Assembly (NCBI GenBank): GCA_951406725.2
Contig: OX597819.1
Span: 49,104,001 to 49,168,000 of the forward strand
DNA from: Octopus vulgaris
Lineage: Eukaryota
Direction: 5' to 3'
Length of the DNA: 64,000 bases
Positions 10,313 to 37,450 of the stretch are shown in pieces. A program made the translations under genes and the position numbers. The notes under the pieces were generated by a model. That model did not search any database, was not told the DNA's origin, and saw only the letters and a program-made list of their open reading frames with translations. Positions within the stretch are counted from its first letter, which is position 1, and each line of letters opens with the position of its first letter.

Positions 10313-10770
10313 ACACAGTTCTATATTTAAGAGATGAGGAATTATCTACATTATTTACACTTGACGCATATTTGTCCTCATCTTGTTTCTTGTTAACACA
10401 ACGTTTCGGCTGATATACCCTTCAAGCTTTCATCAGGTGTCTTGAGGAAATTTCGAACCTGGGTTCTCATTCCTAAGGTATTTTTCGATGTTATTATTAT
10501 TCAGGTAACTACGCCACATGCCGGTGGACATATGGTGTAAAGGTTAAGAGCGCGGGCTACTATCCCCAAGATTCCGAGTTCGATTCCAGGCAATGACCTG
10601 AATAATAATAATAATAATAATAATAAACAACATCGAAAAATACCTTAGGAATGAGAACCCAGGTTCGAAATTTCTCCAAGACACCTGCTGAAGGCTGGAG
10701 GGTATATCAGCCGAAACGTGTTAACAACAAACAAGATGAGGACAAATATCCGTCAAGTGTAAATAATGTA
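10313..10770. mobile_element. Inverted (head-to-head) pair of family D elements (tRNA-like head plus hammerhead-bearing 3' module)
   Basis: 10348-10510 is the reverse complement of ~10595-10770. The + arm has a tRNA-like head (tatggtgtaaaggttaagagcgcgggctact...gagttcgattcc). Confidence 0.85.
10395..10441 (-). ncRNA. Minimal type I hammerhead ribozyme motif (family D)
   Basis: Minus strand reads gacac-CTGATGA-a-agcttgaagggtatatcagcc-GAAA-cgtt-gtgtt. The core is intact and stem II is slightly mutated. Confidence 0.65.
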
Positions 10771-28357: not shown

Positions 28358-28372
28358 TAGATATATAGATAT
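28008..28372. repeat. (CTAT)n/(CA)n/(TA)n compound microsatellite
   Basis: Seen directly. Confidence 0.95.
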
Positions 28373-28653
28373 CAAATGATGTTTTATAAAACTATTCTGC
28401 ACATACAATAACACCCACACCAACAATCCAACATACCTCCATCATCAGTTGCTCCGTGGATATCACTATGGTTTCAACACCTGGGCTGTATCATTCCATC
28501 TGGTGGTGTCAACAGCACTAAAATGAGTGTTGTTTGGGAACAAACATTCCTTAGATATCACCACATTCATTCAATCTTAATTCTAGGAAGGATTAAGCAG
28601 TAACATTATTATATATATATCTGTAATATATATATACATATATATATATAAAT

Positions 28654-29030
28654 CTCGCTCTGAGATTTATCATTGTTTGATTTCACTTTTTCAATATCAG
28701 TGTCGATTTGACACTGGAAAAAGTATATGTATTTGCGAAGGGATCTGACTTCTCATCGACAACCATGATTGTCACACGCTGATGAAAGATAAACACCTTG
28801 AAACTCGGGTACGTGTGTATCATGTGTTGAAGACGGGGAGGATGACTCCCCTTCACAAATACTGACAGGACACAGATAGTGTGTCTATAGCCAGCTGGAG
28901 GAGATATCTTCCTGGGGCTACAAACTACAGTAGCATCCACCCTTATGGGTTAGCCATATTCAAATGGCAAATATGCAACACAATGTGTTACCGCTACTGT
29001 TTATAACTCGCTCTGAGATTTATCATTGTT
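28654..29030 (+). mobile_element. Retrozyme-like element: 353-bp unit with 24-bp terminal direct repeat, inserted in (TA)n
   Basis: ctcgctctgagatttatcattgtt at 28654-28677 and 29007-29030. Internal hammerhead and many hairpins. (TA)n on both flanks. Confidence 0.8.
28756..28830 (+). ncRNA. Type I hammerhead ribozyme
   Basis: cacacg(28773-78)-CTGATGA(28779-85)-aag/ataaacac/ctt-GAAA(28800-03)-c tcgg g-TA-cgtgtg(28812-17). GUA cleavage triplet ends at 28811. Stem I extends via catgat/atcatg and tcgaca/tgttga. Confidence 0.88.
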
Positions 29031-29406
29031 ATATATATATATATATATATATATGTATTTGTGCATGTGTGTGTACGCGCATGTATTCATAGCACAAATA
29101 TGTTAGATTTAGCGGTTGTGATTTGGTCTCGACTGAAGTCAAGATTGAGAAGACTTATGATCAAAGGCATTATTTGAGGACTGGGCACATGAAAGTCACT
29201 GCATTTAAAGAAACCAGCTTAAAAACAAAACAAAATAAAATAATGATAATAATAACAACAACAGCTATATTAATCAAGTGATGCCTTACAACTGTGCAAT
29301 TGTTTCAATATTGTCTTAAATTTCTTCAAAGGCCATTGAAAGAATATAAGAAATACAGAACTGTCAAGTTGTATGGTTGTAAGGTATCACCTGGTTAATG
29401 TAAATT

Positions 29407-36746: not shown

Positions 36747-37130
36747 AGAAGATCAATGAATAATAGTGTAACAAATCAACCATACTAACAGAAAGGACAT
36801 TTCAGTTTCAATCTAAATCCAGTTTCCATATACAAAATGTTTAGCCATCATATTGGTTTCAAATTTTGGCACAAGGCCAGCAGTTTTGGGGGAGGAGATA
36901 AGTTGATTACATTGACCTCAGTGCTCAATTGGTATTTATTTAAACAACCTCAAAAGGATGAAAAGTAAAGTTAACCTTGGCAGAATTCAAACTCAGAACA
37001 TAAAATCGGAAGAAATATAGCAAAGTACTTTTTTTGTCTGTTGTGGTAATGATTCTGCCAACTCACTGCCTTCCGCTCTGGGAAAGATAAGCTGATTACA
37101 TCGACCCTAGCGCTCAGCTGCTACTTATTT

Positions 37131-37450
37131 AACACTATTTACATTATTTACAATTGATGGATATTTGTCCTCATCTTGTTTGTTGTTAACACAACGTTTC
37201 GGCTGATATACCCTCCAGCCTTCATCAGGTGTCTTGGGGGAAATTTTGAACCTGGGTTTTCATTCCTAAGGTATATTTCAATGTTATCATCATCATCATT
37301 ATTATTATTATTATTATTAATATTATTATTAATATCATTATTATTATTATTATATTATTATTATTATTATTATTCAGGTAACTGCTTGGAATTGAATTTG
37401 GAATCTTAGGGTTAGTAGCCCACACTCTTAACCACTACACCATATGCCCA
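37131..37450 (-). mobile_element. Family D element (tRNA-like head, (AAT)n, hammerhead module) inserted in a family B SINE with ~12-bp TSD
   Basis: TSD tgctacttattt (37119-30) / tggtacttattt (37451-62). Minus-strand head gggcatatggtgtagtggttaagagtgtgggctactaaccctaagattccaaattcaattcc. Confidence 0.85.
37188..37233 (-). ncRNA. Minimal type I hammerhead ribozyme motif, intact core
   Basis: Minus strand reads gacac-CTGATGA-a-ggctg-gagggtatat-cagcc-GAAA-cgtt-gtgtt. Stems I and II pair, and stem III is reduced to the palindrome AACGTT. Confidence 0.75.

Follow-up and report, generated by a model that had tools for sequence, protein, structure and literature searches.

The stretch of Octopus vulgaris DNA analyzed here (64,000 nt, hereafter the window) carries on its forward strand a full 353-nt non-coding unit of a dispersed repeat, subfamily A (28654..29006), the 5′ end of which is a variable truncation point. 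The first 24 nt of this unit (28654..28677, unit positions 1–24) recur directly behind it (29007..29030), and direct comparison bore out the description in an earlier note of an exact 24-bp direct repeat with a period of 353, the identity extending no further on either side; the 24-mer is absent from the four families of an automated repeat listing and was verified by direct check. The second 24-nt copy ends at what is, in family terms, a fixed 3′ site, termed site A (29027 or 29030, unit positions 21 or 24), and a further fixed 3′ site of the family, site B (unit position 331), corresponds to 28984 and is read through by the window copy. The 43–46 nt lying between the two sites (28985..29030), delimited by mapping of family ends, are compared below with the "tail" described in the accessible text of PMC11167929 and PMC8557442. 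A TA-rich sequence on the left (28609..28653) and a (TA)n run on the right (29031..29055) represent the target, the latter at the primed end. As had been claimed, the segment, with a unit GC of 0.416, is richer in GC than the surrounding DNA (about 0.31–0.34) and lies between TA-rich runs. It is not unique, as was also claimed, since exact cores of its family occur 175 times in the genome and a reversed control gave none.

The unit has little coding capacity, with the longest stop-free frame in a concatemer being 55 aa (+) or 88 aa (−) and the longest frame from Met 45–46 aa. A frame search of unit and concatemer found no RT + GIY-YIG ORF, and no tRNA gene or tRNA head was found in the unit. 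Nine positions of the window copy deviate from the majority in subfamily A, and the exact core of this copy has only 2 genomic matches because of a near-private base discussed below.

The Hammerhead Motif and Its Predicted Folds

A type I hammerhead motif (28773..28817, + strand), identified by pattern match and by covariation in the family, consists of a 6-bp stem I (28773-28778/28812-28817), the core CUGAUGA (28779-28785), stem II (28786-28799), GAAA (28800-28803), and a GUA site, which follows a very short stem III; cleavage is predicted to occur after 28811. The stems, CUGAUGA, GAAA, and GUA are therefore as described previously, but the "3-bp stem II" of that description is a defect of this particular copy. 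Stem II of the family is 5 bp with a 4-nt loop, and the base at 28789 is G in 136 of 138 passes and A in 2, the A of the window copy giving an A-C mismatch that breaks a stem II pair. Judged from sequence, this near-private A weakens stem II, and the window copy is an ordinary single insertion that is probably impaired. It contains one hammerhead where other family loci contain two or more, and lies outside the definition of an active retrozyme locus in the accessible text of Li et al. (2026).

Taken by itself the motif is hard to distinguish from chance. An Rfam scan, which had been suggested earlier, gave no hammerhead match at the gathering score or even at E ≤ 10, and a loose hammerhead pattern had 8 matches at 4 places within the 64-kb window, a number reached by 9 of 100 shuffles and thus at chance level. 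Hence support for the motif has to come from its relatives. In an alignment of 22 distinct sequences from three subfamilies, five of the six stem I pairs have changed on both sides, both stem III pairs are kept in all 22, and both pairs of the loop III palindrome change on both sides, in step across subfamilies, with 95.5% of cells paired. The covariation score was reached by 0 of 500 shuffles, a significance that the relatedness of the sequences inflates and that depends on few events in three related subfamilies. The base preceding the cut is A or C in 40 of 40 units, with one G among 131 arm-level observations. Counting against the preferred explanation, 19 of the 22 aligned sequences leave the first pair of stem II unformed. 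The compensatory changes and the conserved base before the cut, although few events are involved, support a ribozyme that is likely to be under selection.

The 377-nt segment folds far more stably than its shuffles (z = −6.25; 0 of 100 equally low), and the opposite strand gives z = −5.92, as expected of long helices. A long rod with the hammerhead at its tip is predicted at 28729..28858 (+), and this would keep both ends of a cut monomer together. The lowest-energy fold of the monomer, which likewise counts against the preferred explanation, is an inactive form in which the core is paired with loop III. The stem III/loop III octamer (28803..28810, +) is self-complementary and could form an 8-bp duplex with a second copy (−10.9 kcal/mol), giving a predicted dimeric hammerhead. 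According to these models, the palindromic stem III duplex and the core-hiding monomer fold fit the already published idea that multimers are cleaved while monomeric circles are not (Cervera and de la Pena, 2014, PMC4209133, accessible text).

The Family and Its Subfamilies

The genome searched comprises 2.8 Gb in 227 contigs. A search with the element returned 102 matches at 92–100% identity, from 40 scored of 2588 candidates, and the subfamily A core has 87 forward and 88 reverse exact occurrences, so that the other genomic copies anticipated in the earlier note exist, partial tandems among them. Two older subfamilies were found, B (83–86% identity to A), which was traced via variants in public contigs and has 760 motif matches genome-wide, and C (about 61%), which was noticed as a chance neighbor. 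Their periods are 350–353 (350 in C, 353 in A), the 33-nt core is of equal length in A, B, and C, and the copies are spread over many chromosomes in at least three age classes. Several B copies (L068, L074, L075, and L080) have in common that U4 of the hammerhead core is changed to C, a variant that has apparently spread. A more distant relative of the unit at L111:25-270 (profile E 3e-15) has a hammerhead core and a different palindromic stem III and constitutes a fourth subfamily.

Close relatives of the unit are also present in sequencing runs of four organism labels; contigs over the unit are also found in four runs that are only guessed to be RNA, and these contigs show neither strand, ends, level, nor circles. 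At window positions 28855-28965, public contigs are about ten times deeper than over the hammerhead, and loose ends keep hairpins there by means of changed sequence. This depth likely reflects a part common to many truncated copies and to distant subfamilies, and the region is a candidate site of enzyme binding. An A-to-G (ADAR-like) bias in subfamily A, suggested by raw counts (81 A>G vs 41 T>C), was rejected by distinct sites (36/93 vs 31/97, p = 0.36), the excess in counts being driven by two recurrent sites.

The size, strong predicted folding, and hammerhead of the unit resemble those of viroid-like or satellite circular RNAs, and an endogenized RNA of this type, of outside origin and replicating from RNA to RNA, was considered. 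Viroids and viroid-like satellites replicate from RNA to RNA with no DNA stage, and ribozymes are often found in both polarities. In the unit the hammerhead motif is on one strand only, the base changes show no strand bias by distinct sites, close relatives occur under four organism labels, and the copies, of at least three age classes on many chromosomes, are chromosomal insertions with transposon footprints. Among viral contigs, two matched the loose pattern and neither gave a profile hit to the unit. Nothing points to an infectious RNA of the viroid-like type raised as a candidate in the earlier note, and we consider this origin very improbable.

Neighboring Repeats in the Window

Two copies of another hammerhead-bearing repeat are located at 37100-37270 (−) and at 10394-10530 (−), the latter accompanied by a partial copy in inverted orientation near 10640-10770. 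Its long stem II and short palindromic stem III are those of the minimal type found in Penelope-like elements (PLEs). On a first look there were 1838 candidates, 92–98% alike, several of them with inverted partners, and no RT-like frame was apparent by eye among the long frames of 12 loci. Just upstream of the retrozyme is a different, older repeat (28372-28610; 86–90% identity to 40 scored of 1540 candidates). A fixed left-hand end adjoins a TA run, and on the other side this repeat breaks off at the start of the retrozyme's TA-rich target; other copies run past the point corresponding to 28610. No hammerhead was found in it, and it was rejected as part of the retrozyme insertion as it belongs to another, older family with TA-rich DNA between the two.

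Anatomy of the Insertions

A total of 107 subfamily A loci were mapped onto the unit, 85 of them taken from among the 100 cores that head the list of 175, and the remaining 22 from a best-score list or from the search with the core of the window copy. Twelve loci representing the same insertion twice were removed before mapping, and one segmental duplicate was then dropped to leave 106. Because each locus had been picked for its length or for having an intact core, long arms are over-represented in this set. Read in the sense of the hammerhead, 157 of the 165 outer 3′ ends fall within two intervals that make up 9% of the unit, with 64 exactly at site A (41 at unit position 21 and 23 at 24) and 55 exactly at site B, the two being separated by 43–46 nt, and 141 of the 165 adjoin TA runs. 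The 5′ ends are scattered across the whole unit. Head-to-head inversions are present at 59 of the 106 loci; where both outer ends are at fixed sites, one A is paired with one B in every case (52/52), and the 7 further inverted insertions have one end away from the fixed sites.

Arms of subfamily A have a median length of 312 nt (10th percentile 116, maximum 823 nt) and contain up to 2.3 units, and those of subfamily C up to 3.1 units, the longest measuring 1085 nt. The proposal that copies arise by going slightly more than once round a circle from a permuted point does not describe the family as a rule, because the 3′ start is fixed at two sites and only the stop varies, and because only 12 of 79 arms from site A are 354–400 nt long. 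The 24-mer redundancy is likewise not a family rule. We infer that synthesis of the window copy, a single arm, began at site A and came to a halt 377 nt later, so that 24 nt are present twice. At L028:2205-2278 the 21–24 nt end piece occurs three times after the last unit, as if priming at site A had restarted.

Subfamily C similarly has two sites, about 51 nt apart, and as its insertions are often located outside microsatellites, target-site duplications (TSDs) are visible; those of at least 7 bp flank 10 of 19 inverted insertions and 3 of 342 mismatched pairs. In subfamily A, TSDs were seen at 2 of the 8 loci checked (12 and 14 bp). The window's 24-bp repeat could in principle be a TSD around a 329-nt insert, or a chance repeat, given that direct repeats stand at both ends of one insert. 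This can for practical purposes be dismissed, as the 24-mer occurs inside tandem copies genome-wide, followed by unit sequence or TA, and the true TSDs are 7–14 bp of flanking DNA lying outside the element. Since it is internal to other copies, the 24-mer is element sequence, as had been argued in the earlier note.

A Probably Uncut RNA as Template

The arms of an insertion are copies of one haplotype. Polymorphic sites are discordant in 15 of 309 comparisons within arms and 17 of 414 between arms, against 9454 of 24324 between random loci, and shared rare changes per kb number 2.2 within arms, 3.6 between arms, and 0.24 for random loci. Successive passes and both arms of one insertion thus carry a single haplotype, and an origin of the two arms from different RNA species was rejected on this basis.

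With a monomer cut at both ribozymes as template, no arm could be longer than 173 nt when starting at site B or 219 nt when starting at site A. This limit is exceeded by 125 of 158 arms, a share inflated by the selection of loci; 64 of the 158 are longer than 353 nt and continue into another unit, and 11 span two cut sites. The 5′ ends show no enrichment at the ribozyme cut site, where 5 of 143 passes stop (p = 0.36), and both arms pass the cut site in 23 of 50 inverted insertions, where selection required only one to do so. The long arms and the missing stop indicate that the template was not cut at the ribozyme and was either a circle or an uncut multimer.

Between these two, the evidence leans modestly toward the circle. 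In the linear alternative, the same family would be copied by the same PLE-type enzyme from uncut multimers transcribed from two- or three-unit loci (or by jumps between linear monomers), so that a circle can be dispensed with and the hammerhead may seldom be active; it differs from the preferred explanation in the template step alone. Two- and three-unit loci do exist, the sharing of haplotypes fits a circle and a multimer equally, and in vitro the anole PLE enzyme works mainly on uncut RNA (PMC11167929, accessible text). On the other hand, the first 100 of the 175 cores include no long array, even the longest arms do not exceed the 823 nt (A) and 1085 nt (C) given above, and the 350–353 period has been kept over about 40% divergence despite 5′ truncation, which would otherwise erode the family and calls for a length-restoring step. 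The predicted rod would hold the cut ends together, and mussel repeats of the same size (350–390 bp) have been shown to be circular in the accessible text of PMC7229834. For these reasons the circle is favored, and the linear template is the less probable of the two though it retains a substantial share of our credence.

Penelope-Like Elements as Candidate Helpers

Insertions of PLEs are known to show truncation at the 5′ end, partial tandem copies, a 5′ partner in inverted orientation, and a 30–40 bp tail, in many cases on just one of the ends (Craig et al., 2021, PMC8557442, accessible text). Subfamily A has the 5′ truncation, partial tandems, inverted 5′ partner, and AT-rich target, and the retrozyme insertions have the PLE layout of two fixed 3′ ends, a tail at one end, and an inverted partner. 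According to the accessible text of Frangieh et al. (2024, PMC11167929), the anole enzyme, a predicted dimer, nicks and extends both strands of AT-rich DNA in vitro, its two internal start sites on the RNA bound the tail, and uncut RNA is its dominant substrate; cleavage is dispensable for insertion of the anole element, and there are no reads ending at the cut site.

The octopus genome encodes many intact RT + GIY-YIG frames of 781 aa, mostly 97–99% alike, with a C-x4-C-x2-C motif before the nuclease, which the accessible text of PMC8557442 assigns to Neptune/Nematis (and Naiad). Copies of this element end at two sites 38 nt apart and adjoin (TA)n; in one inverted copy the two ends are of different types. 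In this young intact family (L123-L133, e.g., L130:1843-7010), a 479-aa frame lies upstream of, and overlaps, the 781-aa frame in another reading frame, and there is a 456-nt pLTR and a 38-nt tail. Its pLTR contains, by eye, a hammerhead-like motif with a U-A core change, a variant that also appears in the accessible text of PMC4209133. A second RT + GIY-YIG family (L134:3321-6483 and L137) occurs in a perfect 766-nt inverted arrangement, one end of which bears a tail of ~30 nt; its pLTR has a hammerhead-like motif with a CCGA core start. No relatives of the 781-aa protein were found in the PDB.

Mobilization of the Penelope type, as suggested in the earlier note, is therefore supported by the 157 of 165 fixed ends, the 52 of 52 A + B pairings, and the same layout in RT + GIY-YIG elements. 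A search of 16 long and 30 short GIY-YIG loci (150 of 6136 GIY-YIG candidates were scored) revealed no autonomous parent whose end is homologous, and four RT/GIY-YIG families score against the unit within the range of shuffles. Relatives of the unit beside three of the 16 long loci were discounted as separate insertions or as lying outside the coding element. By age and target, the 781-aa elements are the best helper candidates, and they share no sequence with the unit.

The common end anatomy also raises the possibility that the copies are simply 5′-truncated stumps (pseudo-LTRs) of an autonomous PLE, much as many Xenopus retrozymes are homologous to PLE ends (bioRxiv 10.64898/2026.07.22.740005, accessible text). 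The arms longer than 353 nt (64/158) run into another unit rather than into coding sequence, however, and no homology was found to the four coding families tested. This reading is already disfavored for the present copies and is improbable, whereas a more distant origin of the unit from a PLE end is plausible.

Proposed Mechanism

Taken together, the segment in the window is most probably a 5′-truncated insertion of a dispersed 353-nt non-coding hammerhead retrozyme that was likely copied in trans by a PLE RT-endonuclease. In such a mechanism, the enzyme would nick both strands of TA-rich DNA, and each nick would prime cDNA synthesis at an internal position of the RNA, one nick using site A and the other site B. 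From there the enzyme would copy backward along a circular monomer (or a multimer left uncut), reading across the uncut hammerhead and stopping after a distance that varies. The hammerhead would cut as a pair by means of the palindromic stem III, such that two-unit transcripts release monomers, which a host ligase would close, and a lone circle would stay uncut.

A more specific version, which we offer tentatively and hold to be less likely than not, has a two-headed PLE enzyme priming both nicked (TA)n strands on one circular 353-nt RNA, always with one head at A and the other at B, and rolling through the uncut hammerhead. If this is true, the 52 of 52 pairings of one long with one short end, with a shared haplotype, would be a genomic record of two-headed priming, and the 353-nt RNA would be a minimal natural substrate with which to settle who mobilizes animal retrozymes and would also show how the Penelope tail and inverted repeat arise.

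Comparison With Known Systems

By its sequence-level features, the family appears to be a metazoan non-LTR retrozyme. This is the kind of element, a non-coding type I hammerhead repeat, that the earlier note had proposed, and the proposal gains support from the copy number, the partial tandems, and the short frames from Met (at most 45–46 aa). In common with the retrozymes in the accessible text of Cervera and de la Pena (2020, PMC7229834), it is multi-copy with a non-coding unit of 150–450 nt and a GC content below 50%, and it has a type I hammerhead with a 6-bp helix I and a short helix III, TSDs longer than 4 bp, and co-existing autonomous PLEs. The octopus copies are scattered and comprise one to three units, frequently accompanied by an inverted partner, and no long arrays were seen, whereas coral repeats reach 62-mers. 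In those systems circles and cleavage were demonstrated, while in the octopus family both are predicted, and where that study proposes PLEs as helpers, the octopus insertion footprints point to them.

With the EN+ PLEs described in the accessible texts of PMC8557442 and PMC11167929, the family shares a tail bounded by fixed 3′ ends and confined to one end, 5′ truncation, partial tandems, a 5′ partner in inverted orientation, insertion into AT-rich/(TA)n DNA, and a hammerhead located upstream of the priming sites. It differs in that the unit has no ORF, the tail is 43–46 nt (51 in subfamily C) rather than 30–40 nt, and the hammerhead is of canonical size rather than the minimal PLE type. The octopus junctions match the TA target by 1–2 nt, whereas the anole enzyme starts without homology (PMC11167929).

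The vertebrate pLTR-derived retrozymes (Li, Clavereau and Pollet, 2026, bioRxiv 10.64898/2026.07.22.740005, accessible text) resemble those of octopus in their proposed PLE dependence and in occurring as monomer, dimer, and multimer copies. Its authors linked them to PLEs through co-occurrence and homology to pLTRs and describe local amplification by unequal crossover, while for octopus the link is drawn from insertion anatomy, no pLTR homologous to the unit having been found in the four families tested. The words "tail" and "mollus" are absent from the main text of that preprint, as are "octopus" and "cephalopod" from that of PMC7229834, and no paper on an octopus retrozyme or on tail and inversion footprints in retrozymes came up in literature searches, although supplements, Repbase, or Dfam may hold the family.

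The dimeric type I hammerheads of PMC4209133 (accessible text) likewise have a 1–2 bp helix III and a palindromic loop III; in octopus the palindrome changes in step across three subfamilies, and activity is a prediction. The same paper already proposed more-than-unit copying of a circle for PLEs. Retrozymes are therefore known, as is the case for PLEs as their helpers, argued from co-occurrence and pLTR homology. What the octopus family adds is a quantitative footprint argument, consisting of fixed dual start sites, strict A/B pairing in inverted insertions, and no stop at the ribozyme, in a genome where a non-coding substrate of young age occurs alongside PLE ORFs that are young and intact. 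Two questions thereby become testable, namely which enzyme moves animal retrozymes and whether the tandems and tails of PLEs come from copying a circle.
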